From assembly GCA_965199825.1 (NCBI GenBank), contig OZ241329.1, positions 1,824,001 to 1,888,000 of the forward strand: a stretch of 64,000 bases of DNA, given 5' to 3'. This document shows positions 4,212-64,000 of the stretch, in pieces (positions within the stretch are counted from its first letter, which is position 1; every line of letters starts with the position of its first letter). The notes beneath the pieces were generated by a model. The model was not told where the DNA came from, searched no databases, and was given only the letters and a program-made list of their open reading frames with translations. The DNA is from Bdellovibrionales bacterium (GTDB lineage: Bacteria; Bdellovibrionota; Bdellovibrionia; Bdellovibrionales; UBA1609). The position numbers and the translations under genes are program-made.

Positions 4212-5408
4212 ATGAAAGTTTTGTTGTTAGAGGGAATACATACCAGCGCAGAAAAACGCTTTCGTGAAGCGGGCTTTGAAGTTGAAACAAGTAAAGCCGC
4301 CATGAACGAAGGTGAACTCTTAAGTGCACTAAAAAACGTCGATGTGCTTGGCATTCGATCAAAAACCGAAATTACAAAAAACGTTTTCGAGGCTCACCCG
4401 CATCTGTGGGCGGTGGGAGCTTTTTGCATCGGGACCAACCAAATAGATCTTGTTTGCTCAAATAAACTCGGTATTCCGGTATTTAATGCTCCATACTCAA
4501 ACACGCGCAGTGTGGCCGAGATGGTTTTGGCCGAGCTCGTGATCCTCTCGCGACAGATGGGCGATCGCAATACGAGAGCTCATCTTGGCCAATGGCAAAA
4601 GTCAGCGGTCGGGGCAAAAGAAGTTCGTGGAAAAACTTTAGGGATTGTGGGGTATGGCCACATCGGCAGTCAGATTAGTGTTTTGGCCGAAGCTTTAGGT
4701 TTAAGAGTGATCTTTTTTGATATTGTGAAAAAACTCCCCATGGGGAATGCGCGACCTGTTGAAACCTTAAATGAGCTTTTGAACGAAAGCGATTTTGTGA
4801 CTTTACATGTGCCTGAGACTCCTCAAACCTCCAATTTGATGGGTGCCTTAGAACTGGGACAAATGAAAAAGGGTGGGTTTTTAATCAATGCGAGTCGGGG
4901 AACGGTAGTCGATCTTGAAGCCCTCGCAAAGCAACTTAAAAACAAACATATTGCGGGAGCAGCGATCGACGTTTTTCCACTCGAACCAAAAAGCAATGAC
5001 GATAAATTTGTTTCGCCTCTTCAAGGATTAGAGAATGTTTTTTTAACCCCCCATGTGGGAGGCAGCACCGAAGAGGCCCAAGAGGCCATTGGTCTCGAGG
5101 TCTCAGAAAGTATTTTGCGATTTTTTAAATCAGGAAGCACGGGGGGTGCGGTCAACTTTCCTCAGATCGAGGCCCTGCCCATCGAAAAAGGCCAACGTCT
5201 TATCAATGTTCATCATAATGTGCCGGGTGTGCTTCGCGAAATCAATTCGCTGGTATCAAACAGTGACGCCAACATTCGGGCGCAATATCTGAGCACCGAC
5301 AATGAAATTGGGTATTTGATTATGGATGTGGAAAATGCGCCGGCTCAAGGCTTAAGCGATCAGATCCGCAACTTAAAGACCTCAATCAAGACTCGGGTCT
5401 TAGTGTGA
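4212..5408 (+). CDS. serA: D-3-phosphoglycerate dehydrogenase (with ACT domain)
   Basis: LLLEGIH, GIRSKT, FCIGTNQ, NAPYSNTRSVAE, GYGHIG, TPHVGGSTEEAQ; likely ATG at 4212. Confidence 0.95.
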   Translation: MKVLLLEGIHTSAEKRFREAGFEVETSKAAMNEGELLSALKNVDVLGIRSKTEITKNVFEAHPHLWAVGAFCIGTNQIDLVCSNKLGIPVFNAPYSNTRSVAEMVLAELVILSRQMGDRNTRAHLGQWQKSAVGAKEVRGKTLGIVGYGHIGSQISVLAEALGLRVIFFDIVKKLPMGNARPVETLNELLNESDFVTLHVPETPQTSNLMGALELGQMKKGGFLINASRGTVVDLEALAKQLKNKHIAGAAIDVFPLEPKSNDDKFVSPLQGLENVFLTPHVGGSTEEAQEAIGLEVSESILRFFKSGSTGGAVNFPQIEALPIEKGQRLINVHHNVPGVLREINSLVSNSDANIRAQYLSTDNEIGYLIMDVENAPAQGLSDQIRNLKTSIKTRVLV

Positions 5409-5918
5409 GAATTCGCAGTAAGCACCGCGATCGTTCATCTCGCCGCAGTGGACTAAATTAAAGGTTCCCAATTCTTTTTGGGCCTCCACCATGGCTTGGG
5501 CAAAGGATTGAACCACTGGCCCTTGAACAAAACCGGATTCGCACTCAAACAAAAGATGTTGAGTCTTAACAGAGGCCAGACAATTCTGGTCGGTTGCTGA
5601 ACCCCAAGATGCGGTACTCGAAAGTTTGTTTTCTGCATAAACACATTTTAAGGAATCTTCCGACGTACAATTGATAAAGCTCAATTGAGGAAAATATTTT
5701 TGGGCAATGAGGTCATAAACCTTTTTTTGCCCAATCGGGTGGCGGAGTGGGTGGATCTTGAGGCGAAGATTGATTTCTCCAGTATCACAGCGAATATGGA
5801 CCTCAGGAACATAATGCGAGAGTTTGCAGAACCGTGCTGCCTGAGTAAACCCAAGATCTTGCTTTGGCCAATGGCCCGCAAAGGCGAGCCCCGAAAAAAT
5901 TAGCGTGAGAATAAACAT
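5400..5918 (-). CDS. secreted Cys-rich hypothetical protein, paralog of 5900..6499
   Basis: Signal peptide MFILTLIFSGLAFA; 8 Cys in two repeated modules. Confidence 0.7.
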   Translation of the reverse strand: MFILTLIFSGLAFAGHWPKQDLGFTQAARFCKLSHYVPEVHIRCDTGEINLRLKIHPLRHPIGQKKVYDLIAQKYFPQLSFINCTSEDSLKCVYAENKLSSTASWGSATDQNCLASVKTQHLLFECESGFVQGPVVQSFAQAMVEAQKELGTFNLVHCGEMNDRGAYCEFSH

Positions 5919-6499
5919 GATCCGCCAAAATAATAATCGCAGTGAATGACTTTGAATTCTTGCAACAGTGACCGCGCCCAATCGAAGGCGGCTTGTTCGT
6001 TCAAAATATTATCAGCGTCGGTCAAAGGATATTTGGCTAATCCGTTGTCACAATCAAAAACTAATGCCCGGCGTTTGGGATCAAACCAACTTTTTTCCAT
6101 TTTGACATAACACAAAGTTGCATCTTTGGCGTGAGCTGAAAGATCAAGTTGTGGCGCATTTCTCACGGCCGATTGTTGCATAAAAGTGCAATTGAAACGT
6201 TGGCCCCCACCGCCGCCACATAAGCGAACCGAGAGCTGGGGTGAAAGCAACTCTTGCGCCACCAAAATTCCGCGGTAGCCATTTGTGACCATGTCATTGC
6301 CTAGAAAATTATAAGTGATCGATCCGTTGTCGCAGTAAAACACCACGTGAGCTGGCGAGCCATGGGTATCGGGAGAGACATAGACCGCTTGGCAAAATGT
6401 AGACTGCTGGGTGAATTCTAAAATTTGAGTTCGACTTGTTGGCTTTTGAGCAAAGGCTGCGGGGGCTAATAACATTGCTAAAACAAAAAGTGATTTCAT
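5900..6499 (-). CDS. secreted Cys-rich hypothetical protein
   Basis: AGGAG RBS; signal peptide MKSLFVLAMLLAPAAFA; two CDNG-containing modules. Confidence 0.8.
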   Translation of the reverse strand: MKSLFVLAMLLAPAAFAQKPTSRTQILEFTQQSTFCQAVYVSPDTHGSPAHVVFYCDNGSITYNFLGNDMVTNGYRGILVAQELLSPQLSVRLCGGGGGQRFNCTFMQQSAVRNAPQLDLSAHAKDATLCYVKMEKSWFDPKRRALVFDCDNGLAKYPLTDADNILNEQAAFDWARSLLQEFKVIHCDYYFGGSCLFSR

Positions 6500-6593
6500 G
6501 TGCGCTCCTAAAAACCTATTGTTTACACCCGGCCATTTGCCAAGGGCAACCGCAACACTTCAGTCGTGCACTTAATTCAATTTTTAAGGTGCT

Positions 6594-6608
6594 GTCTCAA
6601 TTTGAGAT
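6594..6608. promoter_or_regulatory. 15-bp palindrome GTCTCAATTTGAGAT (putative transcription-factor site)
   Basis: Intergenic between divergent genes; near-identical copies at 19779 and 45293. Confidence 0.55.
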
Positions 6609-6707
6609 ACCTTCGCTCACTTCATTTGCCTGCAGCGTAATTTGTCACCCCTGTCATGTTTACTACGGCCTAAACGCCTCAGCACAACGTTTAAACCGTT
6701 TTAGCGT

Positions 6708-6723
6708 CGGTTTCGGCCTTGCA
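6708..6723 (+). promoter_or_regulatory. possible sigma54 -24/-12 promoter
   Basis: cGGtttcggccTTGCa, GG-N10-GC spacing, about 40 nt upstream of the 6765 operon; weak -24 match. Confidence 0.35.
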
Positions 6724-6764
6724 ATTCAGAGTGTTAAGGGAAGGATCATTTTATCAAAAACTCA

Positions 6765-7880
6765 TTGCTCCTTATCATTCTGTTTTTACCCTTTTATGCG
6801 TTGGCTCAAGGGCCTTCGGTAGAGCCTGCTGACATCCAGCCTGAGCTAAAAACGAGCTGGGCGATGAGCCTTTATGGTCGGGGTGTGAACGATAGTATCG
6901 AAAAGAGTTTTGTCTCTGGTGTGGCCGGTGTGGCAACCCTTAAGTATGAGCCCTTAACTTGGCTTGATACCAAAATCGCTCCCGGAGCGGTGATCGAAAC
7001 CGGAAGTGTCTCGGCACTTTATGATTCCAACCAACCCCGCAATACGGTTTTTTTGGATGAAGCCCTTGTGAATGTGAAGCCATTTAGTTTTTTTACTTTG
7101 TCCACTGGTGCGATCAATCAAAGATTTCTTCATAGTCCGCTGTTGATCGATGCACAGTCTTTTCCAGGTGCTCTTCAAAATTTTCATTACGAAGGCCCTT
7201 TGGGCAAATTCAATTTTATTCTTGAAGAAGCGGTGCCCTCTTCGGTCAGTTTCTCAACGCTCACAAGCGATAAAGAACCCCTACCACAATTGTTTACCCA
7301 AACACTTTCGTTTGAGGTTGTTCCAAATCGCGATGTGAAATTTATTGTACGCGGAACTCACTTTCAGTTTAGTGATTTGCCAGCTCAAGTTGCTTATCTT
7401 TCGAGTATCAACGGCAACAGCAGTGCGTGTATCAGTGGTGATGTGCCCCAAAGTAAACGGTTTTTGTGTCAGTTTGAAGGCTGGCAAACCGGAGTCGAAA
7501 TGGATGTTCATTTAGCCACGGGCGTGTGGGCAATGACCGGGGGCGAGTACATCGTGAACGAAGGTGCACCCTCTGGTGAGAATCAGGGATACATGGGTTT
7601 TGGCCAACTTCGATTTGCGATTGCTCCTCAATGGCGGATGTACACACGCGCCGAATATTTTTATGATCAGTCTGACACGTCTCCTGCATTTTACAACTCG
7701 CCGATTTATGGACACAGTAACCGCCAAGGTTACGGTGGAGAGTTGAGATTTGAAAATGCGCGCAGTGGATTTGATGTGCGCTTTCGATATGTGGATGCAA
7801 GATTGATCGAGACCAATCCAAATCAAGCCAACACCACTATCTTTTTACTAACACTGGGGTTTTTCAGTGCGACTCATTAA
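6765..7880 (+). CDS. putative outer-membrane beta-barrel/porin
   Basis: Signal peptide, alternating amphipathic strands, aromatic C-terminal strand (IFLLTLGFF). Confidence 0.7.
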   Translation: MLLIILFLPFYALAQGPSVEPADIQPELKTSWAMSLYGRGVNDSIEKSFVSGVAGVATLKYEPLTWLDTKIAPGAVIETGSVSALYDSNQPRNTVFLDEALVNVKPFSFFTLSTGAINQRFLHSPLLIDAQSFPGALQNFHYEGPLGKFNFILEEAVPSSVSFSTLTSDKEPLPQLFTQTLSFEVVPNRDVKFIVRGTHFQFSDLPAQVAYLSSINGNSSACISGDVPQSKRFLCQFEGWQTGVEMDVHLATGVWAMTGGEYIVNEGAPSGENQGYMGFGQLRFAIAPQWRMYTRAEYFYDQSDTSPAFYNSPIYGHSNRQGYGGELRFENARSGFDVRFRYVDARLIETNPNQANTTIFLLTLGFFSATH

Positions 7881-10800
7881 GCTTATTCCAATTTTATTTT
7901 TGGTCTCTTGTATTAAACCTGTGCAGCCAGGACATGGTGGCACGGCCAGTTACTACGTGGATAGCATTGTTAAAAAGGCTTCGACTCCTTCGCATAGAAT
8001 CGAAAACTGGGATATAACCGACGCCCAAATTTTTAAATTTAGTGTTTGTCTTAAAGACAATGTGAAACAGCGCGGGGTTTTGGTTCATCGTTTTAACATC
8101 ACCGGTCCTGATCATCCTGTGACCGATCCTTTAGTGCCAGTGACCGATCCTGGTGGATGTTTAAACTGGAGCGAGACCATCGCATTCGATCCCTTGGCTA
8201 AGCCTTGCTACATTACGATCGAACGCACACTTCATCCCGATGGAATTCAGCGCGGTGAAGTAACGGTGAAATTAGGAATTAATCCTTGGACTGGTGTGAC
8301 CGATTCCAACGAGGCTGTTGCCGATTTTAGCATCGCTAAAGACAAAGTGGCTCGCTTGTGCGAAGAAGACGTCACTCACGCTTTGCAAACAAAAACTTCG
8401 GTTAAAATGTTGATCGAAAATTTGGGCTATCAGTTTACCGATCGCCAAGATCTTTCGACCGAAGGACATGTTGAAGAACTTCGTCTTAATTTTAAAGTTT
8501 CTTTGAAGACCAAAGATATGAATGATGTCGAAAGCAATCCTTTGAGCCTCACCAAGGGATCGCTCTTAGTGACATCGACTTTTTACCGCATCGAAAATGG
8601 CAAACGCTTTAAACTCAACGAGACACCTCAGCCTGAGATTGCAGTAATCAACGATAAAGTTGCCACCGTCACATTCAAAAAAGTCAAAATGATCGAAGAG
8701 ATCAAACAGACTGGGCGCTATGAAGTGGTGCTCGAAGCAAAAGTCAATGAAGCCAGCCACCCTCCAAAAGGCATTGAGCAATTTGTGGGTGTGATGCTGG
8801 TAGGTGATGGCAGTAACGTTCGAGCGGGCAGTGCGACTATTGTGAATTCTCCAGAAGTTGCGCCTGAGCAATACAAAGCCTTGGCACAAACTTCGATCGC
8901 AAATGTGAATCAAGCCCCATTTAGAATCGGGGATGCCGCATCTATTCATTTTCAGCATATTAAAAACGAAGATAGTTTTAACCGACTCGTAGGATTGAAA
9001 TTAAGTCTTCCCATTATCTCGGCGTTTGATAGCTCATCGCTCCCAGACCGTTATTTTTTGATTTACTTGGTTCCTCGCGGAGCGAATCTTCAATCCATCA
9101 CCCCGGTAAAAAGAAAAACCAATAATTCAGGAATGCTGTATTGGCCCGATGCGGTTTTAAATTACGATATTTATAAATCGATGCATAAAATCGCCTACGA
9201 TATTGTAGTTGAGTATTTGCCTTCTGAAAATGCTGCAGCAGATTTAAAACATGCACGCCAAACATTGCCGATTTGTATCAACCCTTGGGACGAATTGTCT
9301 GGCGACTTTGCGGGCACCGCAGAATTTCAAGCCGATGCCACTTGTCGCGATGTAAAGGGAGCAACACCTTTTGTTTCTGATATTGCAAAAGTGCCCACAC
9401 TTTTTATTAATAGTGTTGGTTGGGAGCGCACAGATATTTCATATCGGGTCAATCAGACCTTAGGTTTATCCATTAAGCATGATTGGACAATGTCGTTAAA
9501 GGCTTCAATTAAACGCTATGATGGCGACGCTGGTCAAAATGGATCATCCGAAGCCTTGCGTCCAGGAATTTGGGCTTTAACAACAACCCTTTTTCACTAC
9601 GATAAATCCAATAAAAAAATCCAGGGAATCGCGGCTTCTTCGCAAAAATTAGTTCGCTATGAACAAGGTTTGTTTACTAGCCAAATTCGAATGAAGTTTA
9701 ATGAATCCAATATTCTCGATGCAATGACATTGCAAAAATATTTGGCGGTGCAAATCACCCAAGTAGATCCAACTTCACTTGAAACGATCAATGGTCAGGT
9801 CAATCTGAATTCTAAATCGTGGCGCCCCATGGACAGCGCTCATTCGGATTTAAAAAGCGAGCCTGTGATCGTCAACTTTGTGGGCGCTAAGGATACTAAA
9901 GATGTGGTCGGTGAGGCCAATGCCACCCCCCAAGTCAAAGCGCTTTACCAAGAGCTTAAAAATAAATCCTTGCTCGAGCGCCACCGCGAATTTGCAGTGG
10001 CAAAAGTAGAGCGACAAGTGCCAAGCGATACCGCTTGGATGAAAACGGCCGAAGATCTCAAGCTTAAAGGTGTTGCGATCACCAACGATGAAGATGCTCA
10101 AAAAGTTTCGCCCTTATTTAAAAGACGACCGATGACGCTTGCTCTTTTAAAACGGACGCTGAGCTGTCTTGATAAACAAGGTTGGGCGCCAAAAGATCAT
10201 ATGAATGTGTGTGCCACAGATCCTGAAGTGATGCACGCAATGCAAAATTTGTGTGGCGTATTTATGGATCCTAAACCTCCAGGAATCCTCAATATAAGTC
10301 CAATAAATAATTTGGATTTAAAATTTATGAATTGTGGTCAAAATCCGACTCAAGGTCTCCATGTTGAAGAAAAAACGGTTGTCTATAGTGTCAATTCCGA
10401 TCACAGCAAATTTGTTGGCGGATTTGCGACTTCGATGACCGTTTCAAATCTTTTTGGAAATGGCTCTTTTAATGGGTCGGACTATGGATCCTCAGATACC
10501 TCAAGTTTTAGCGCATCGCTTGCGACCAACGGTCTGACACCAGCAGGTGGAAATTTTGTAAACGGTGGAACTTATGGTGTGGGTCTGTTTGGTGTGACCG
10601 CAGGACGATCCCATGCATCCACTGTGGCTGATTTTCAACGGGAATATGCCGACAACCAAGCTTACGCCAACAACAACGTGACACTCAAAATAGAAAGTGC
10701 CGACTTAAATTTGGAGATCTTGCGCTATCGTGAGTGCTACGTTTTAAAATCAGAAACATCGCCTGACAAACAGGGTTTATTTATATGTTACCCCATTGAA

Positions 10801-54543: not shown

Positions 54544-55397
54544 ATGATCCAGTTTTGAGATTTAAAAAAAATAGGCTTGCTGTTTTTTGTTTGAGCTATG
54601 TGGTGTTGATGTGTCTGATCGCCCTGTTTGCTCCGCTCTTGTCGCCCTATCCATTTGATCTTCAAAATATGGGCGAGATTTTATCTTCTCCCAATTCAAA
54701 ACATTGGCTGGGCACCGATGCCTTAGGCCGAGATATGCTGTCGCGTTTGATTTATGGCGCGCGGATGTCGATGTCTGTGGGTGTGATGACCGCCTTTCTT
54801 TCACTCCTTATCGGAACAACTTACGGGGCTTTGGCAGGCTGGTCGGGCGGGTTTATAGACAATGTGATGATGAGAATTTTGGATATTTTGATTTCAATCC
54901 CAACCCTCGTACTTTTGATCCTGGTTAAAATATTTTTTGATGCCTCAAACCTCATTCAAAATGCAGAACTCAAAGCCCTCTCAGGAATTTTACTCGCCCT
55001 TTCACTTGTGAGTTGGGTGACTTTGGCTCGTGTGGTGCGGGGTCAAGTGCTTCAAGTTAAACAAATGGCGTTTATCGAGGCTGCTCGAGCGCTCGGTGCG
55101 AGTTCTTTAACTATTGTTCTTAAACATATTTTGCCCAATATTTTAGGTCCAATGATTGTGCTTTTAACATTTCAAATTCCGGCAAATATTTTGTTTGAAA
55201 GTTTTTTGAGTTTTATCGGACTTGGGCTTCAACCCCCATATTCGAGTTGGGGAGTGCTTGCTAACGAAGGTTGGCGCAGTTTGCGCTCTTATCCTCACCT
55301 GATGATCTCTCCAGGACTTGCGCTATTTTTTGCGATGCTCGCTTTTAATTTTTTGGGCGATGGGTTGCGCGATGCCTTTGATGCTAAGATGAAGTGA
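54540..55397 (+). CDS. oppC: oligopeptide ABC transporter permease
   Basis: HWLGTDALGRD, EAARALG, ESFLSFIGLG, GDGLRDAFD. Confidence 0.92.
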   Translation: MNDPVLRFKKNRLAVFCLSYVVLMCLIALFAPLLSPYPFDLQNMGEILSSPNSKHWLGTDALGRDMLSRLIYGARMSMSVGVMTAFLSLLIGTTYGALAGWSGGFIDNVMMRILDILISIPTLVLLILVKIFFDASNLIQNAELKALSGILLALSLVSWVTLARVVRGQVLQVKQMAFIEAARALGASSLTIVLKHILPNILGPMIVLLTFQIPANILFESFLSFIGLGLQPPYSSWGVLANEGWRSLRSYPHLMISPGLALFFAMLAFNFLGDGLRDAFDAKMK

Positions 55398-56370
55398 GCA
55401 ATTCTTTTTGCAGTGCAAACGATAGCAAAAAAGGATCTTTGATTTGGCGTTCACCAAAATCTTCTTTTGATTTTATTCCTTTCCATCGCTGCTCAATCAA
55501 AACTTGGGCGGTCGCACCACCGAGGCTTGAACCTGGCCCCAGCATCACCAAATGATCGGGTGCAAATTCTTTAACCGCAACCTCGATCGCCTTTGAGTAA
55601 TTGTAAACTTCAACCACCTGGTGGCCAAAGGTGTACTCATAAAGATCTTGTGCTTCGGTTGAAAAGGGCTGCCAAATTTTTCCGCGTCCATCGATCAAAG
55701 GAATCTTTGGTGGAGTAAATAAATCTTGATTTAGAGTCTCAAAAGCTCTTTGAGATATGGGCGCCATCAATGGGGTGTGAAAGGCCGCGTGATTGATCAG
55801 TTGAAATGGAAATCGATCGCGACGTGGCAGCCGCTTTAAAACTTCGCTCACCGATTCGCAACCAAAAACCAAATAGCCACCAAGTTTGATCGATAGAAAT
55901 GTGTTTGGAATATCAAGTGCACTCAAGGCTTCTGCGTGGAGTGGGGGCGAGGGTGTCCAATCGTCATTGCAAATTTGGGTGATCACTTGCGAGCCTAAGA
56001 GTTTTTCTTTCATCATCGCGCCCATGGTTTGGATCACCTCAAAACCATTTTCGAAACTCACAGCTCCGGCTAGAGCTAAAGCGGTGTACCAGCCCATTGA
56101 ATTTCCGGTGATCGCCACGATCTCAAAATTTTTTAATTTTTTAAAATCTTGGACCGAGCTTGCATAAATTAAGGGCGATGCATGTTCACCCTTGGTGTGG
56201 AGCGAGTTTTGAAATGACGAAGCCTGATCCATTTCGCTTAAAGTTGGAAAACCAAGTTCACTGCGGCGTTGATCACAGTACTCAAGGAGACTTGAAGTCT
56301 CGAGCTGACCCATTGTTTCTTTGGTGTACGTGCCGCGACCAGGACACACCACCACCACTCGTTTTTTCAT
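55384..56370 (-). CDS. FabD-like (ACP S-malonyltransferase-fold) acyltransferase
   Basis: CPGRG, TGNSMGWY nucleophile elbow, HAAFHT. Confidence 0.85.
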   Translation of the reverse strand: MKKRVVVVCPGRGTYTKETMGQLETSSLLEYCDQRRSELGFPTLSEMDQASSFQNSLHTKGEHASPLIYASSVQDFKKLKNFEIVAITGNSMGWYTALALAGAVSFENGFEVIQTMGAMMKEKLLGSQVITQICNDDWTPSPPLHAEALSALDIPNTFLSIKLGGYLVFGCESVSEVLKRLPRRDRFPFQLINHAAFHTPLMAPISQRAFETLNQDLFTPPKIPLIDGRGKIWQPFSTEAQDLYEYTFGHQVVEVYNYSKAIEVAVKEFAPDHLVMLGPGSSLGGATAQVLIEQRWKGIKSKEDFGERQIKDPFLLSFALQKELLTSS

Positions 56371-58526
56371 GACTCAACCAATTCTTTTGCTGCCAGAACA
56401 ATGTCGGATGTTTGTGGCAGACCCGAGACCGCAGCAGCTCCTAATGGAATAAAACAATCAAGGCCTGCCAAGACTTGTATGCGCGGTGGATTTTTTATTT
56501 TCTCGATGATCATTGCAACCAGTCCCTCGCTCAAAGATCCGGTCTGACGGCATTCATCCACAATCAAAATCGATTTGTATTTTGAAATTTCCTGAATCAA
56601 TTGCTGTTTAGGTAAAGGATGAAGCCATCGTAAATCCAAGACGGCCGCATCGATTCGATGTTGGTCCTTTAATATTTTTTGGGCTTGCAGCGAGAGATAG
56701 GTTCCATTGCCATAAGTTAAAATCAAAATAGAATCGGTCTCGCCATAAACACGAAATTCTACAAGGCGAATTTCGCCACTCAGCGGAAAACTAAAAGACC
56801 ACGCCTTATCTCCAGAGCGATGAAGGTCGCGTGTCATGTAAAGAGCGATCGGTTCGATAAAAACAATCACTCGGCCTTTTTCCCAAGCAAGCTCAGCGCA
56901 CGCGCGAAGCATTTGGACCGCATCGTCTCCTCGCGAGGGAACCGCAACAATGATTCCCGGTATATCGCGAAACACACTGAGCGAATTGTCGTTGTGAAAA
57001 TGACCACCAAAACCTTTTTGATAGGGCAATCCGGCGATTCGTAAGATCATCGGATTCACAAACTGACCTTTAGAAAAAAAAGCGAGGGTCGCAGCCTCAC
57101 CACGAATTTGATCTTCGGCATTATGGACATAAGCCAAAAACTGAATTTCTGGAATCGGCAAAAATCCATTGTGGGCTAAACCAATCGCTGTTCCCAAAAT
57201 TGACTGCTCATCGAGTGGAGAATTAAAAACCCGACGTGCCCCAAATTTTTTGTAAAGCCCATCGGTCACATTGTAAACGCCGCCTTTTTGGGCCACGTCT
57301 TCACCAAAGATCAAGCTTTGAGGATAGCGATCAAGAATTTCTGCTAAACCAAAATTTATTAATTTCGCCATATGAAGTGGCGCATGGGGCACTTCAAGGG
57401 ATTTAAAGTCAGGCGACTTTCTTGGGAAAGCACAAGCAGTGATGGTGCTTGCAACATCCATCGGATCATCCAGTGGTTCGCGCGTGAGGGCCTCGTGTGC
57501 GACCGCAATCACTCGAGCACGCACCGACTGATAAAGATCAATGATTTGGGTTTGTGATAAAAAGTTCTGTTCGACACAAATTCTGGCCGAATGGAGAAGC
57601 GGATCTTGAAATTCATTTTCTTCCATCTGCTTTAAACTCAAATAGTTTGTTTCCATATCCGAGCCGGCATGACCCATAAGCCGAACAGTTTTGATATGCA
57701 AAAAAACGGGCTGCTGTTTTTTAACCGCAAGACTGCGAGCCAATACCGATTTTTGATAAACATCAGAGAGATTGAGCCCATCACATTTCAAATAATTAAA
57801 ATGGGGACGCTGAGAAAAATTTTTTTCGATCCAATCCGAACTTGTGGGAACCGAAATCCCGATTCCATTATCCTCACACACAAACACAATCGGTAATCCA
57901 ATTTTTTGATCCGCAATCAGTGATGCGGTATTAAAAGCACCTTGAGCGGTGGAGTGATTGCTCGAAGCATCTCCAAATGAGCACACGACTACACCATCGT
58001 CTGGAATCACGGTGGTTTTAATTTTTAAATATCGGGCGCGTGAAATTGAAAATGCTGTGCCCACGGCCTTTGGCAAGTGAGACGCAATGGTCGACGTCTG
58101 CGGCGGCACGTTGAGTTCAAAACTGCCAAACACCTTGTGCCTGCCACCTGAGATCGGATCTTCGCGTGAAGCCAAAAATGAAAGCCATGTATCATAAAGT
58201 GGTGTGGTGCCAGGCAATTGTTTTGCTCGCTGAAGCATAAAGGCGCCGCTGCGATAATGCAAAAAGGCCATGTCTGTAATTTTAAAAGCTAAGCCAACCG
58301 CGGCGTTGCCCTCGTGACCCGAACTTCCGATGGTGTAGTAACACTTGTTTTCATTTTTTAAGATACGCGCATACAAATCCAGATGCCGTGATTGAATTTG
58401 GGTTTCAAACAAATCAACAAATTCAGTTTTTGTCAGTCCTGAGTATGGGCTTAAGGCCTGAGGAAAGCTTCCTTCGTTCACATGCTTTAAAAAATTCTGA
58501 TCGATCACTTCTGCGCGGTTGAACAT
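56367..58526 (-). CDS. fused E1 alpha/beta thiamine-diphosphate-dependent 2-oxoacid dehydrogenase
   Basis: YTIGSSGHEG, HYRSG, FGDAS..N, CEDNGIGISV, GHAGSD; beta part FGEDVAQKGGV, LDEQSILG, EIQFLAY, GGHFHND. Confidence 0.92.
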   Translation of the reverse strand: MFNRAEVIDQNFLKHVNEGSFPQALSPYSGLTKTEFVDLFETQIQSRHLDLYARILKNENKCYYTIGSSGHEGNAAVGLAFKITDMAFLHYRSGAFMLQRAKQLPGTTPLYDTWLSFLASREDPISGGRHKVFGSFELNVPPQTSTIASHLPKAVGTAFSISRARYLKIKTTVIPDDGVVVCSFGDASSNHSTAQGAFNTASLIADQKIGLPIVFVCEDNGIGISVPTSSDWIEKNFSQRPHFNYLKCDGLNLSDVYQKSVLARSLAVKKQQPVFLHIKTVRLMGHAGSDMETNYLSLKQMEENEFQDPLLHSARICVEQNFLSQTQIIDLYQSVRARVIAVAHEALTREPLDDPMDVASTITACAFPRKSPDFKSLEVPHAPLHMAKLINFGLAEILDRYPQSLIFGEDVAQKGGVYNVTDGLYKKFGARRVFNSPLDEQSILGTAIGLAHNGFLPIPEIQFLAYVHNAEDQIRGEAATLAFFSKGQFVNPMILRIAGLPYQKGFGGHFHNDNSLSVFRDIPGIIVAVPSRGDDAVQMLRACAELAWEKGRVIVFIEPIALYMTRDLHRSGDKAWSFSFPLSGEIRLVEFRVYGETDSILILTYGNGTYLSLQAQKILKDQHRIDAAVLDLRWLHPLPKQQLIQEISKYKSILIVDECRQTGSLSEGLVAMIIEKIKNPPRIQVLAGLDCFIPLGAAAVSGLPQTSDIVLAAKELVES

Positions 58527-58585
58527 AGATTAAAGAATGTTCTGGTGCGCTTGACCGAAAGGCAACAAAAAGGTGTGATAAAGAT

Positions 58586-59752
58586 ATGAGTCAATATGAG
58601 CATTTGAATTTTATGAATGAAGATATTCTTTTTAGCGAAGAAGAATTAATGATCCGCCAAACCGTCAGAGACTTCGTCACAAAAGAAGTTTTGCCAGTGC
58701 TTCAAGAAAGTCATCGCAAAGAGCATTTTCCATCACAGCTGATTCCGCGATTTGCCGAGATGGGTTTACTCGGATCGACCATCCAAGGTTATGGTTGTGC
58801 AGGATTAAACCATGTGGCTTATGGATTGGTGATTCAAGAGTTAGAGCGCGCCGACTCGGGCATTCGTTCCTTTTGTTCGGTTCAAGGCTCGCTTGTGATG
58901 TATCCCATTTATGCTTACGGATCCGATAAACAAAAAGAGAAGTACTTGCCCCAACTCGCTTCTGGAAAAATGATTGGATGTTTTGGCTTAACCGAACCTG
59001 ATGCCGGATCAAATCCTGGTGGCATGCTGACCAAGGCCGAAAAAGTAAAGGGTGGGTATCGCCTCAACGGAAATAAAATGTGGATCACCAATGGCTCAGT
59101 TGCCGATATCGCAATTGTTTGGGCAAAGCTTGAGGGCCGCGTGCGTGGATTTATTGTTGAAAAAGGCACAGAAGGTTTTTCGACAACACTCACAAAAGGA
59201 AAATTCTCACTTCGTGTCAGTGTGACAAGTGAACTTCATCTCAAAGATTGCATCGTGCCCGAAGAAAATATGTTGCCCAATTGCGATGGCCTCAAAGGCC
59301 CGCTCGGATGTTTGTCGCAAGCGCGATACGGTATTGCGTGGGGTGTGGTGGGTGCTGCAAACGCCTGTTATTTTGAAGCTCTCAATTACGCAAAAAATCG
59401 GGTGATCTTTGATAAGCCTTTGGCAGGATATCAGTTAGCTCAAGCGAAGTTAGTCAAGATGGTGCAAGAGATCACAAAAGGTCAGCTGCTGGCTTTGCAA
59501 ATGGGACGACTCAAAGAAAAAGGCGAACTCCAGCCTCATCATATTTCGCTCGTAAAAATGAACAACTGCCGCATGGCTTTGGATGTGGCTCGCGATGCGA
59601 GAGATCTACTCGGCGCCAATGGAATTATTGATGAGTATCCAATTATTCGTCACATGATCAATCTTGAAACTGTGAATACGTATGAAGGAACCGAAGATGT
59701 TCATCGTTTAGTTGTGGGTGGTGAGATCACGGGCTTACCGGCGTTTCGGTAG
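58586..59752 (+). CDS. gcdH: glutaryl-CoA dehydrogenase-type acyl-CoA dehydrogenase
   Basis: ELERADSGIRSFCSVQGSLVMYPI, GCFGLTEPD.GSNPG.M, ARYGIAWG, NLETVNTYEGT.DVH. Confidence 0.85.
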   Translation: MSQYEHLNFMNEDILFSEEELMIRQTVRDFVTKEVLPVLQESHRKEHFPSQLIPRFAEMGLLGSTIQGYGCAGLNHVAYGLVIQELERADSGIRSFCSVQGSLVMYPIYAYGSDKQKEKYLPQLASGKMIGCFGLTEPDAGSNPGGMLTKAEKVKGGYRLNGNKMWITNGSVADIAIVWAKLEGRVRGFIVEKGTEGFSTTLTKGKFSLRVSVTSELHLKDCIVPEENMLPNCDGLKGPLGCLSQARYGIAWGVVGAANACYFEALNYAKNRVIFDKPLAGYQLAQAKLVKMVQEITKGQLLALQMGRLKEKGELQPHHISLVKMNNCRMALDVARDARDLLGANGIIDEYPIIRHMINLETVNTYEGTEDVHRLVVGGEITGLPAFR

Positions 59753-59773: not shown

Positions 59774-59865
59774 TGAGTGCGGGTGATCGTGCCCGCGATG
59801 TTTTGGAAGCTTAGGTTAGTGGGCGCGGCTGGGTGAGTGCGGATTCTCGTGCCCGCGATGTTTGG
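59774..59865 (+). repeat. two ~30-bp palindromic direct repeats with 60-bp period (REP-like)
   Basis: TGAGTGCGGgTgaTCGTGCCCGCGATGTTT (59774) vs TGAGTGCGGaTtcTCGTGCCCGCGATGTTT (59834), 27/30 identical; GCGG..CCGC stem. Confidence 0.85.
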
Positions 59866-60136: not shown

Positions 60137-60964
60137 ATGGATCATTTAAAAATTCATTCTCAAGCAGTCAAGGCCGCGGATTCTCATCGCAAATCTGAAA
60201 TGGAATTGCTCAACGCTTTAGAAGTGGTTTGGAAAAACAAAACGTACTACCAGTTTGGTTGCGCCTCATTGTTTGAATACTCTACGAAACAACTGAAGCT
60301 TTCTGAAGAGATGGCGAGCATCGTAAATAAAATTGCCAAAAAATTTACCGAACTTCCAGAACTTAAATCAGGCATAGAGTCGGGCGAGCTCTCGCTTTCA
60401 AAAGTGAATCGCATCACTTCTGTTGTGAACAAAGACAATGTTCAACATTGGATGGATCTTGCCAAAGGCACCAAACGGAATCTCGAAAAAGAAATTGCGA
60501 AGGTCCAACCTGAAAAGGCCATACCCGAGCGGGCACGATACCAAAAAGCTGGAGATACCCTAAGAATATCGATTTCATTTTCGGTCACTCAAGAAGAATA
60601 CGCAGTGTTTGAACGCACCAGAGATTTGCTGAGCCAAAAATTAAAACGTGCCGCGACCATTGGCGAAGTTCAAGTCGCAGCCATCAACGAGCTCAATCAA
60701 AAACTCGATCCGCTCAGAAAACCGCTTCGCAAAACCCAAGCGGGCACGACAAGATTGACTGTCACGTTGAAGCGTAAAATTCACCATCAACATCACAGTC
60801 AATGCACGTATGTGGATCAAAATGGTCAACGCTGTGGTGAACGTCGCCATCTTGATATCCATCATATTATTCCAAAATCGAAAGGTGGCAGTGACGCCGA
60901 AGAAAATCTCACACTCTTGTGCACCGGGCATCATCGTGCCCACCACAAGAGTAAACATAATTAG
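60137..60964 (+). CDS. HNH endonuclease with N-terminal helical (DUF222-like) domain
   Basis: AGGAG RBS; G..SLFEY....LKLSE, IESGELSLSK; C-terminal CTY..NGQRC...LDIHHIIPKSKGGSD..ENLTLLCTGHH. Confidence 0.88.
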   Translation: MDHLKIHSQAVKAADSHRKSEMELLNALEVVWKNKTYYQFGCASLFEYSTKQLKLSEEMASIVNKIAKKFTELPELKSGIESGELSLSKVNRITSVVNKDNVQHWMDLAKGTKRNLEKEIAKVQPEKAIPERARYQKAGDTLRISISFSVTQEEYAVFERTRDLLSQKLKRAATIGEVQVAAINELNQKLDPLRKPLRKTQAGTTRLTVTLKRKIHHQHHSQCTYVDQNGQRCGERRHLDIHHIIPKSKGGSDAEENLTLLCTGHHRAHHKSKHN

Positions 60965-61064: not shown

Positions 61065-62597
61065 TTGACGGAATCAAAACTAAAAAGACAAAAATGGCTG
61101 ATGCTTCTCGCACTTTTTTTTAGCTTTGCAAGTTATGCGCTTGAAATTCAGGGTTTCGTTACCAAGGACTGTGCAAAGGTTGCAGGCATTATCGTCTATG
61201 CCACTGATTCTGAAATCGAAATCGTCAATCTCAAAGGACAACTTCAAAAAATTGATGTGCACGATATTTCGTCTTTGGTGGCGTTTGATGTGCTCGACAA
61301 TCCCATCGGCACATTTCAAATCGATGACAAACTAAAAGAGCGCCTTAAGCTTTTATATATTGAAGACCAAAAAGGTGTGCCGGTTTTTGCGATTCGCTTT
61401 ATCGAAGACTTACTTTTATTTATGACTTTGGACGGCAAAGTTCAGGTTCATTCCTTTTCTGATATCCAAAAGCTGAGGCCTGCAACCGAAAATGTCGAAC
61501 CACATCGGCGATTTTCAAAAAATCCCAATTTTGATTTTTCGGGAGCTTCTGCCAGCTGCAGTTTTGATTCTGATAATGGGATCAAACCCACGCGGATCAT
61601 GACCGATCAAATTAGCATCGGCGAATTTATCAATGATTTTGCCAGGGGTTATGAGGGACTTGAAAGTTTTGAAGAGCGCACCTATCTGTACTCTCGCCCA
61701 TATCTGTTCGAACGCCATGCACGTTTTGGACTCTCTGTGGTTTCCTCGCGCACCGAGCCCGCGATCGAGGCTCCGGTGTTTTTTCAATTCTCATCTGGTG
61801 AGCCCTATCGCTTTCAAAGTTTCACTGCCTTTGGAATGATCTCGCAAGAATTTTTGCCCAACTCCGAGCCCACATTTAGTCTACGGTCCGAAGTCAAATC
61901 ACATTTGTTTCACGCTTTATTTGCCGCCAATGTGCTGGGCATTCCTGCGGGCACCTCGATCTTTTTAAAACATCCAAGCGAAATGAAGCTTGAAAAGGAT
62001 GTGAACGTTCAACCCTCATTTAATTATTTGGCAATGATGGGGGCAGACTATGGTCCCTATAGTTTGTCGGTTGGACTTTATTATCCCACTTTTGGAATCA
62101 AGGTCGGCAACGAGTATCGCGAAGTGTTGGGAAGTTCGGTCTCCTATGCGGTGCGCGCGATGTATACCACTTCAATTTTGCGTCTTAGAGCGATCACCGC
62201 TTTTGTTCGCTACGATCAGAGTAAATCCTCATCGAGTGATGTGCTCTCAAAAACGGGCGAAGACGGCAACCTTGGCACTCCGACGAGTTTTCAATTTCAG
62301 AGTATATTTTTTCGTGGTGGAGCAGACTATCAGTATTCTGACCGCTTAAGATTTAGTGCTGACGCGATCATTGTTGAGGGATCATACAAAGAACAAATGA
62401 GCGGGCTGGGCAATGATATTCGATTTAATAAAGTCACCGCACAATTCACCGCCAAACAATCCTTTAGCGATTATCTTGCGGTCAGTCTTTCGGCAAATTT
62501 GCTTTATCATGATTTTAATTCGAATTTCGTCAACGTCTCGTTAAAAGACGACAAACAGGAGTCCAATTTTTTTGCATCCTTTGAATTTATTTTTTAG
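61065..62597 (+). CDS. secreted/outer-membrane hypothetical protein with C-terminal beta-barrel
   Basis: Signal peptide ending ASYA; amphipathic strands; ends FASFEFIF. Confidence 0.8.
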   Translation: MTESKLKRQKWLMLLALFFSFASYALEIQGFVTKDCAKVAGIIVYATDSEIEIVNLKGQLQKIDVHDISSLVAFDVLDNPIGTFQIDDKLKERLKLLYIEDQKGVPVFAIRFIEDLLLFMTLDGKVQVHSFSDIQKLRPATENVEPHRRFSKNPNFDFSGASASCSFDSDNGIKPTRIMTDQISIGEFINDFARGYEGLESFEERTYLYSRPYLFERHARFGLSVVSSRTEPAIEAPVFFQFSSGEPYRFQSFTAFGMISQEFLPNSEPTFSLRSEVKSHLFHALFAANVLGIPAGTSIFLKHPSEMKLEKDVNVQPSFNYLAMMGADYGPYSLSVGLYYPTFGIKVGNEYREVLGSSVSYAVRAMYTTSILRLRAITAFVRYDQSKSSSSDVLSKTGEDGNLGTPTSFQFQSIFFRGGADYQYSDRLRFSADAIIVEGSYKEQMSGLGNDIRFNKVTAQFTAKQSFSDYLAVSLSANLLYHDFNSNFVNVSLKDDKQESNFFASFEFIF

Positions 62598-64000
62598 TTT
62601 GATCCTCGGATTTTTGACGCTTGAGGCTCATGCCATCAACCTGCATGCGCTCTACACAGCTTCTTGTCAGCGGCATGTGGGAGTGATATTGGGCGTGACT
62701 CCGCGTCACCTTGCTTTATTAAATCTCGAAGGCAATATTGTAAATGTCGAGCGCTATGAGGTGATTTACTACGTCAATTATCCGCTCGATAAAGTTCCGA
62801 TGGCGAGTATCGAAAATCCAGAGCAAGTGCCCCAAGTGACGGTCAAGACTTTCCAAAATGGCGAGCTTGAAACTTTGGTTGTTGGTTGGCCGGTGGATTT
62901 TAGTGCCGATCGTGTTTCATTTTTGAGCCTTAAAGGATTAGAGGTTTCAATCGATCGTCGATCAATTTGGGATATTCGTTTTGACACGCGTAATGGCCGC
63001 GTGGCTTTTCCTCATGTGACAAAACAATTTGAGTTTGTGCCGCCTTATGCGTTTGCAAACTGTGCTACTGAAAAAAAGAAGTTGATCAAAGTTTTCCCCC
63101 AAGATGTGTTGAGCGATCCGGTTAAAATCAAACGCGAGTTTGATCGCTTAGAAGACAGTCACCGACGTCTTCAAAAATACGAAACCGAGGAGCACTTTTA
63201 TCCTGTGCCTGAAATCTACACCAACCAAACTCTGCTTGGATTGTGGCTGATGGCGGGCTCGCGCTATGGCGCCTCCGACAATCGCACCAATAATTTTACA
63301 CCTTTGTTAAGTAACGAATTTAGCTCGGGACCGTTTGGATTTCAGAGTGAGTTTCGCTCGGGCAGTGGGTTGCTCAACCAAACGATTCATGAAGAAACCC
63401 AAACCCAAGTGTATTACCGCATGAAAGCCGACTACTTTCATCTTTCGGCATTTTTTGATCCCAACCTCATTTTGGTGGGCGATAAATATAAGTGGGGACG
63501 AGATGATTTAAAATCCAACGACCTCCGTGCGATCGAAAGTGGATTTTTAGAAATGGGTTTTGATTGGGGCGCCTTCGCATTGGAAGTTTATATGGGCACA
63601 TCCCTCAATGTAGGCGCTCGCGAGCAAGATTATGTGAAGGAAGACACACTCTCCTTACCCCGAATTGGAATTCGCTATCAGGGCTACACCTGGATCTTAA
63701 GTGCGCAGGTGGGCTCAGGTTCCACCGACATTTTTAAGGGCAATTTTTTTCGCGCCAACTTTGAATATAAGCCTTCAAAAAACTGGCGCTATGCGGTCTC
63801 AGCGCTCAGTCGTAATCTAAAGTTTGATGGCAAAGATTCGAACACAAACACGCCTTTCCGATCTGAAAGCAAAAGCTTAACTGTAGCGGGCGATTTTCAG
63901 TTTCGATTTCATACGCGCTATTGGGCAGGATTAAATTTTGCTCTTGAACAGGTGGGTCAAACCGGATCGCTCAATGGCGGTGCTGATCAGAGCGAAAATC
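62581..64000 (+). CDS. paralog of 61065..62597, partial (runs off right edge)
   Basis: Not in ORF track. Frame from TTG 62581 (or 62572): MNLFFSLILGFLTLEAHAINLHALYTASCQRHVGVILGVTPRHLALLNLEGNI..., open in the stretches translated and apparently to the window end. Confidence 0.8.
   Translation, partial: MNLFFSLILGFLTLEAHAINLHALYTASCQRHVGVILGVTPRHLALLNLEGNIVNVERYEVIYYVNYPLDKVPMASIENPEQVPQVTVKTFQNGELETLVVGWPVDFSADRVSFLSLKGLEVSIDRRSIWDIRFDTRNGRVAFPHVTKQFEFVPPYAFANCATEKKKLIKVFPQDVLSDPVKIKREFDRLEDSHRRLQKYETEEHFYPVPEIYTNQTLLGLWLMAGSRYGASDNRTNNFTPLLSNEFSSGPFGFQSEFRSGSGLLNQTIHEETQTQVYYRMKADYFHLSAFFDPNLILVGDKYKWGRDDLKSNDLRAIESGFLEMGFDWGAFALEVYMGTSLNVGAREQDYVKEDTLSLPRIGIRYQGYTWILSAQVGSGSTDIFKGNFFRANFEYKPSKNWRYAVSALSRNLKFDGKDSNTNTPFRSESKSLTVAGDFQFRFHTRYWAGLNFALEQVGQTGSLNGGADQSEN

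Follow-up and report, generated by a model that had tools for sequence, protein, structure and literature searches.

How is an acyl group handed to coenzyme A (CoA) by a 2-oxoacid dehydrogenase whose E1 component is encoded not beside a dihydrolipoyl acyltransferase (E2) but beside a protein with the fold of FabD? The question is raised by a locus in a 64,000-nucleotide stretch of DNA from a Bdellovibrionales bacterium (contig OZ241329.1, positions 1,824,001 to 1,888,000), here called the window, in which the gene of a thiamine diphosphate (ThDP)-dependent E1 overlaps that of an acyltransferase (AT) and is divergent from gcdH, the gene of a glutaryl-CoA dehydrogenase. The host genome belongs to the Bdellovibrionota, measures 2.84 Mb and is rated 100% complete. 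Textbook 2-oxoacid dehydrogenase complexes use an E2 of the chloramphenicol acetyltransferase (CAT) fold for the transfer to CoA. In the reading that we favour, to which we give a probability of about 40%, E1 and AT would together convert 2-oxoadipate to glutaryl-CoA on a borrowed lipoyl arm, with AT carrying out the transfer to CoA. Comparison across genomes establishes that E1 and AT form a genuine module, uncharacterised so far, that is widespread and associated with glutaryl-CoA dehydrogenase.

An E1-AT pair linked to gcdH

The AT gene (55384..56370, minus strand, 328 aa) encodes, as judged from its translation, from alignments and from Foldseek matches, a FabD-fold Ser-His acyltransferase of an uncharacterised family. 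Upstream of it on the same strand lies the E1 gene (56367..58526, 719 aa), assigned by PF00676, PF02779 and PF02780 to a single-chain alpha-beta ThDP-dependent 2-oxoacid dehydrogenase E1. The minus strand reads GAGTC ATGA AAAAA at the junction, the TGA stop of E1 overlapping the ATG start of AT. Across an intergenic region of 59 bp (58527..58585 by the gene coordinates), presumably a shared control region, gcdH is found in divergent orientation (58586..59752, plus strand, 388 aa), recognised by its match to human glutaryl-CoA dehydrogenase (GCDH; 1sir). Pfam and NCBIfam scans of the window proteins revealed no E2, dihydrolipoyl dehydrogenase (E3) or acyl carrier protein (ACP) gene adjoining the three; the locus is flanked by an Opp-type peptide ABC transporter, convergent with the AT gene, and, on the gcdH side, by an HNH protein. 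An earlier note on this DNA had described the fused E1 gene overlapping AT by ATGA, the CPGRG, GNSMG and HAAFH motifs of a FabD-fold AT, the divergent gcdH-type gene 59 bp away and the lack of adjacent E2, E3 and ACP genes, and all of these points are upheld by the coordinates of the open reading frames (ORFs), the minus-strand reading, the translation, the structure match and the identity of the flanking genes.

Chance can be dismissed as the cause of this arrangement, since dozens of unrelated contigs have the genes in the same order. For the Bdellovibrionota, an even sample of 401 genomes was used, 30 of them AT-positive and 371 AT-negative; with the window's own locus set aside, the 29 loci taken from the AT-positive genomes have E1 immediately upstream of AT in all cases but one (28/29). 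A sample of 401 alphaproteobacterial genomes contains AT in five; E1 adjoins it in 4/4 newly fetched loci, and also in L010 and L011. Among metagenome loci centred on E1, 80 were kept, 71 of which extend at least 1 kb downstream of E1, and AT follows E1 in 65 of these 71. In most loci, the stop codon of E1 overlaps or directly adjoins the start codon of AT. The analysis of neighbourhood and co-occurrence that the earlier note had suggested therewith identifies E1-AT as a conserved, translationally coupled and co-inherited module with gcdH as its recurrent third gene, and clustering of the neighbours in 34 genome and 80 metagenome loci leaves E1, AT and gcdH as the only general members. The genes thyX (20 loci), inositol monophosphatase (16) and birA (6) were considered as additional members and set aside, as they look like lineage synteny.

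The link to gcdH takes several forms. This gene is present in 25 of the 29 phylum loci, mostly divergent from E1 and, in L042 and L043, co-directional in the order gcdH-E1-AT; the alphaproteobacterial locus L052 reads gcdH-E1-AT-lysR, and 29 of the 80 metagenome loci contain gcdH, often as E1-AT-gcdH in the marine ones. The pair is repeatedly linked to gcdH in more than one phylum, this gene being divergent from it, upstream of it or downstream. In the phylum sample, gcdH occurs somewhere in every AT-positive genome (30/30), compared with 87 of the 371 AT-negative ones, although related genomes in these counts are not independent. In four close relatives whose gcdH is 69-72% identical, neither AT nor a fused E1 was detected, the E1 search being one without a positive control.

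The third gene of the locus encodes, judging from its sequence, a true GcdH, which scores 436.5 bits with human GCDH (1sir), 414 bits with bacterial GCDH structures and 267 bits with the next family. It very probably acts on glutaryl-CoA, because the Arg of its SGIRS motif and the Glu of its YEGT motif align with SGYRS and YEGT of the human enzyme; we take this Arg to be the carboxylate-binding residue and this Glu to be the catalytic base of GCDH.

The two proteins and their predicted complex

E1 combines PF00676 (E1_dh, residues 49-346), PF02779 (Transket_pyr, 384-556) and PF02780 (Transketolase_C, 596-694) in one chain and is therefore an alpha-beta fusion, whose closest solved relatives, at low identity, are the E1 alpha and beta chains of branched-chain 2-oxoacid dehydrogenase (BCKDH) and pyruvate dehydrogenase (PDH). 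The ThDP motif GD...N (G185, D186 and N220) is invariant in 30 orthologues, and the same is true of H286, which aligns with the second His of GHHS in human BCKDH E1-alpha (1dtw_A), and of E440 and H511, which align with the Glu of PLAES and the His of ELHSD in the E1-beta of G. stearothermophilus (1w85_B). Residues at these three positions presumably take part in ThDP activation and in the reductive acylation of lipoamide, and E1 can be regarded as an intact alpha-beta-type ThDP enzyme as far as conserved residues tell. A Pfam search did not find the CAT-fold E2 catalytic domain (PF00198) in E1. The protein also has an invariant loop, G127-G128-R129-H130-K131, that carries six inserted residues compared with human BCKDH E1-alpha and that, we infer, could bind a distal carboxylate.

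The translation of AT holds the motifs VVVCPGRGTY, ITGNSMGW and NHAAFHT. AT has no Pfam match at E<=0.001, Acyl_transf_1 included, and scores 48.4 bits on the fabD model TIGR00128, the curated cut-off of which (260.9) is not reached. Its AlphaFold (AF2) model, with a mean pLDDT of 95.7 and a pTM of 0.93, nevertheless matches FabD and trans-AT structures in Foldseek searches, with E of about 1e-17, TM of 0.7-0.8 and an identity of 16-21%. Ser91 in the nucleophile elbow GNSMG, His198 of the AFH motif and Gln251 are invariant in 44 family sequences, and AT possesses a Ser-His dyad in a FabD fold. The binding site for the acyl group is altered: in the column of the malonyl-binding Arg (VAKRGAYM in 3im8, VRKRGELM in PksC) AT has Met116 (IQTMGAMM), and Arg12 replaces the Gln of the FabD PGQG loop, both substitutions being invariant in the same 44 sequences. 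In FabD numbering, we take these positions to be Arg117, which would hold the malonyl carboxylate in E. coli FabD, and Gln11.

A housekeeping FabD is encoded elsewhere in the genome (G000:C1:2395306-2396184) and, with 285 bits, exceeds the TIGR00128 cut-off. A plain malonyl-CoA:ACP transacylase, the identity of AT that would have spoken against the earlier proposal, is out, given 48 bits against a cut-off of 261, the change from Arg to Met116 and the separate 285-bit FabD. Because the Arg column holds an invariant Met and a genuine FabD lies elsewhere, AT is predicted to be a catalytically intact FabD-fold transferase other than a malonyl transacylase. The AT family is large, and the name "ACP S-malonyltransferase" under which it is annotated at source is very probably wrong, since the malonyl Arg is missing and the true FabD is a separate gene; the finding corrects a widespread annotation.

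An ACP may still be considered as the acceptor, in which case AT would move an acyl group derived from E1 to ACP, for example as a glutaryl-ACP primer for pimelate and biotin or for an unusual lipid. Glutaryl thioesters prime pimeloyl-ACP synthesis in alphaproteobacteria (PMC7645780). All characterised fold relatives found with Foldseek are CoA-to-ACP transacylases, and a birA-type ligase gene is situated near the cluster in 6/80 marine loci; these birA neighbours, however, look like lineage synteny, an ACP gene is absent from the annotated neighbour clusters present in at least four loci, and the recurrent partner, GcdH, is a CoA-ester dehydrogenase. Alignment with S. pneumoniae FabD further places a Ser of AT at the Lys after GPG, which is presumably an ACP contact in FabD, a weak argument. 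Altogether, we consider the loading of ACP very improbable.

A physical complex of E1 and AT is also predicted. Co-folding of E1 residues 50-719 with AT, based on our own alignments, gave an ipSAE score of 0.85, and the best of the three controls 0.00. According to rough counts, for which own alignments were likewise used, the 0.85 mark is reached by 116 of 157 solved complexes and by two of 215 mismatched pairs. At least 97% of contacts are common to the runs, and the partner pLDDT is at least 89. To the predicted interface E1 contributes residues 102-111 and 322-348, from its alpha part, and AT residues 227-232, 260-271 and 297-298. Within the AT portion, D227, G228, G230 and P271 are invariant, and R229, E268 and F269 near-invariant, in the 44 sequences. 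For the E1 portion, six E1s without AT were compared with 58 AT-linked E1s by their match to the AT-linked consensus. Four of the six have a match of 0.11-0.33 at the interface and of 0.56-0.61 elsewhere, compared with averages of 0.52 and 0.69, respectively, for the AT-linked E1s; this loss fits a real interface, with the qualification that few sequences were compared and that surface positions are variable in any case. The model thus supports direct binding of E1 and AT.

Lipoyl arm, transfer step and substrate

The genome contains two E2 genes. One of them adjoins a 919-aa frame that matches E1_dh and is the sole candidate of the genome for an E1 of the 2-oxoglutarate dehydrogenase (OGDH) type, and the two are taken as a sucA/sucB pair. 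The other E2 (G000:C1:614120-615397), 433 aa long and below the cut-offs of both the aceF and the sucB models, belongs to a lipA-E2-lpd-lipB cluster (G000:C1:610900-616500; L015, about 4900-10470) with no E1 beside it, and a split alpha-beta E1 (340 + 348 aa, C1:1793800-1795870) has no E2 neighbour. Because no alpha-beta-type E1 has an E2 beside it and the lipA-E2-lpd-lipB cluster stands alone, linkage between E1 and E2 genes is generally lacking here. E2 is not among the neighbour clusters common to at least four loci, and in each of the other pair-carrying genomes searched (35/35) the E2 catalytic domain is matched at least twice. The lack of E2 and E3 that the earlier note had emphasised is therefore correct for adjacent genes and carries little weight beyond that, E1 and E2 being unlinked genome-wide and E2 being present in all 35 other carriers.

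A stand-alone carrier such as GcvH had been suggested as the source of the lipoyl arm. There are two GcvH-like genes, the main one at C1:1631615 (151 bits) and a weaker one at G000:C1:797211-797525 (79 bits), and nothing ties either to the cluster. The lipoyl domain of a borrowed E2 is no less likely than GcvH to be the carrier, because E1 keeps its His/His/Glu set and E2 genes occur in all carriers, and the borrowing of both the lipoyl arm and E3 appears to be the simplest reading of the sequences.

Two other frames of the genome concern E1 enzymes. The split E1 is followed by a 260-aa ORF without a Pfam or NCBIfam match (G000:C1:1793800-1796650; L014, 5801-8649), which was considered as a second odd partner of an E1 and rejected, as it resembles class I S-adenosylmethionine (SAM) methyltransferases in the Atlas. 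At G000:C1:629814-631697, an open frame of 902 aa matches AceE only weakly, with 107 bits where the cut-off is 860, and possibly encodes a divergent E1 of the homodimeric type.

In the mechanism that we propose, E1 and AT would form one complex for the conversion of 2-oxoadipate to glutaryl-CoA. E1 would decarboxylate 2-oxoadipate on ThDP and reductively glutarylate a lipoyl-lysine supplied in trans, most likely in the lipoyl domain of the stand-alone E2 from the lipA-E2-lpd-lipB cluster, otherwise in SucB or GcvH. AT, docked on E1, would then take the glutaryl group onto Ser91 and hand it to CoA, as the CAT-fold E2 domain does, the dihydrolipoyl arm would be re-oxidised by Lpd (E3), and GcdH would oxidise and decarboxylate glutaryl-CoA to crotonyl-CoA. 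For the transfer to CoA, AT is favoured over a borrowed E2 domain because its catalytic residues are invariant and its coupling to E1 is tight. The architecture that would result, a 2-oxoacid dehydrogenase without an E2 core of its own, in which a docked FabD-fold AT replaces the CAT-fold domain by way of an acyl-O-serine and yields glutaryl-CoA, is put forward tentatively, as a serious possibility that falls short of being probable.

2-Oxoadipate is named as the substrate because enzymes on both sides of it recur as neighbours of the pair. It is the only 2-oxo acid precursor of glutaryl-CoA; L-piperidine-6-carboxylate (P6C) dehydrogenase makes 2-aminoadipate, and homocitrate synthase starts the other known route to 2-oxoadipate. 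P6C dehydrogenase adjoins the pair, with scores over the NCBIfam cut-off, in four loci of other lineages (L051, L116, L126 and L128), and in a fifth, L102, it is assigned by clustering only. In five marine loci (L070, L074, L077, L079 and L087) a homocitrate-synthase-like gene (HCS; TIGR02146, 398 bits against a cut-off of 414) is inserted between AT and gcdH, in the order E1-AT-HCS-gcdH.

A number of observations weigh against this proposal, concerning the transfer as well as the substrate. With regard to the transfer, we know of no FabD-fold enzyme that takes an acyl group from a lipoyl arm. AT is not strictly obligatory for E1, nor E1 for AT, because six of the 71 checkable metagenome loci have an E1 without AT and because the exceptional phylum locus, L045 (G320:C246:1-5122), has gcdH followed directly by AT, without E1, on a 5-kb contig; a fused E1 was not found anywhere in the corresponding metagenome-assembled genome (G320, 97% complete). 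E1-AT fusion proteins were not found in searches for longer proteins with AT alone or with the 44-sequence alignment, which is weak evidence. The loci without AT agree with a different division of labour, in which a borrowed whole E2 would make glutaryl-CoA, E1 would be DHTKD1-like and AT would be an accessory. AT might in that case clear mis-acylated arms, hydrolyse or re-route acyl groups, or regulate or stabilise E1. A complete E2 with its catalytic domain is at hand in this genome and in the 35/35 further carriers examined, and in animals 2-oxoadipate dehydrogenase works with an E2o and E3 that belong to another complex (PMC9367764; 10.1101/2020.01.20.912931). The invariant Ser-His dyad, Gln251 and P-G-R-G loop of the 44 ATs, however, argue for catalysis and against a purely structural role, and the ATGA coupling together with near-universal co-occurrence suggests a stoichiometric partner of the main reaction. 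We regard this reading, a borrowed whole E2 with AT as an accessory, as rather unlikely.

With regard to the substrate, an origin from lysine or tryptophan, as assumed in the earlier note, is not borne out for this genome, complete as it is. No match was obtained to tryptophan 2,3-dioxygenase (PF03301), to the C domain of saccharopine dehydrogenase (PF16653) or to 3-hydroxyanthranilate dioxygenase (PF06052), the last being a weak negative whose control was silent. P6C dehydrogenase over the cut-off is likewise missing from this genome, the best match (242 against 730 bits) being an astD-like gene beside arginine succinyltransferase, and so is homocitrate synthase, the single HMGL-like gene adjoining a biotinyl protein. 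In the phylum sample, P6C dehydrogenase occurs in seven of the 401 genomes and in one of the 30 AT-positive ones. The association with gcdH also has its gaps, as five of six alphaproteobacterial pair loci have no gcdH nearby and the 87 AT-negative genomes mentioned above carry gcdH without the pair, which implies that glutaryl-CoA has other sources.

Two readings follow: an unrecognised supply of 2-aminoadipate or 2-oxoadipate in these predators, or another substrate in this lineage. In the latter case E1 would act on another 2-oxo acid, for example a dicarboxylic or amino-substituted one from prey, and the link to gcdH would reflect a shared regulon. That five family searches found no known route to 2-oxoadipate in this genome, and that P6C dehydrogenase occurs in just one of the 30 AT-positive genomes of the phylum sample, would be explained in this way, and the closest solved E1s, of the BCKDH and PDH types and of low identity, allow for other specificities. 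Against another substrate speak the position of gcdH as the only recurrent neighbour across phyla, in several gene orders, the very probable action of GcdH on glutaryl-CoA, with 2-oxoadipate as its 2-oxo acid precursor, and the P6C dehydrogenase neighbours in the five loci of other lineages, four of them over the cut-off. A different substrate in these bacteria is, in our judgement, unlikely. For the conversion of 2-oxoadipate that we prefer, the lack of a recognisable source of this acid suggests an additional, as yet unrecognised step in these predatory bacteria.

A separate locus of the genome (G000:C1:2341430-2344885; L055, 308-3761) contains a lysA-type diaminopimelate decarboxylase gene, over the cut-off, which overlaps an aldehyde dehydrogenase gene of the succinate/glutarate-semialdehyde dehydrogenase kind and is followed, after the latter, by an unannotated 310-aa ORF. 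By way of these genes, diaminopimelate or lysine from prey may be broken down in the direction of glutarate.

Surroundings of the locus and known systems

In a simple scan, no consensus sigma-70-like site was found inside 58527-58585. A terminator-like hairpin 3' of gcdH (59778..59797, plus strand) was picked up by a pattern scan and is weak, since the promoter and terminator pattern scans of the region returned sites no more numerous than in shuffled sequence. Of three polyA RNA runs labelled with the same species, none has a read on the stretch, a result that does not bear on expression. The HNH-domain protein beyond gcdH (60137-60964, plus strand, 275 aa) has a weak match to IscB, an RNA-guided endonuclease (41 bits against a cut-off of 175). 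It is followed on the same strand by two long overlapping ORFs without Pfam or NCBIfam matches, one of 510 aa (61065-62597) and one of at least 476 aa (62572-63999), which leaves the window.

A literature search, conducted mainly at the level of abstracts, retrieved no paper on an E1 with a FabD-like partner and no bacterial gene or gene pair assigned to the step from 2-oxoadipate to glutaryl-CoA. If the proposal is true, a FabD-fold AT in the role of E2 would represent a new architecture as well as new chemistry, with the acyl group bound covalently to a serine as intermediate. This enzyme class would then have a second answer to the transfer step, independent of the first and extending over Bdellovibrionota, Alphaproteobacteria and many lineages from the sea, and bacteria would gain a dedicated gene pair for the conversion of 2-oxoadipate to glutaryl-CoA.

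Each half of the pair has well-studied relatives. With the E1s of BCKDH, PDH and acetoin dehydrogenase, the E1 of the window shares the domain set, the ThDP motif and the catalytic His/His/Glu; it differs from these heterotetrameric enzymes in the fusion of its alpha and beta parts, in the GGRHK loop insertion and in the absence of E2 from the shared neighbour clusters. AT has in common with FabD (TIGR00128), PksC and DisD the fold, the GxSxG elbow, the AFH His and Gln251, whereas identity to them is 16-21%, Arg12 and Met116 are its own, and the partner of its gene is E1 rather than an ACP or a polyketide synthase.

As a whole, the proposed system resembles the animal DHTKD1/DLST/DLD complex, which converts 2-oxoadipate to glutaryl-CoA upstream of GCDH with an E1 that borrows its E2 and E3. 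DHTKD1, which we take to be an OGDH-like E1, differs from the alpha-beta fused E1 of the BCKDH/PDH type in the window and has no FabD-fold partner. A closer parallel in organisation is offered by the actinobacterial OdhA/KGD, which has an acyltransferase domain of its own and receives lipoyl-lysine in trans from E2p (PMC10415282). Like the proposed E1-AT complex, it joins an E1 to a private acyltransferase that works on the lipoyl-lysine of another complex's E2 (PMC10415282). In OdhA/KGD, however, the acyltransferase is a CAT-fold E2o domain fused to an OGDH-type E1o, while in the window it would be a separate FabD-fold AT predicted to sit on the alpha part of E1.

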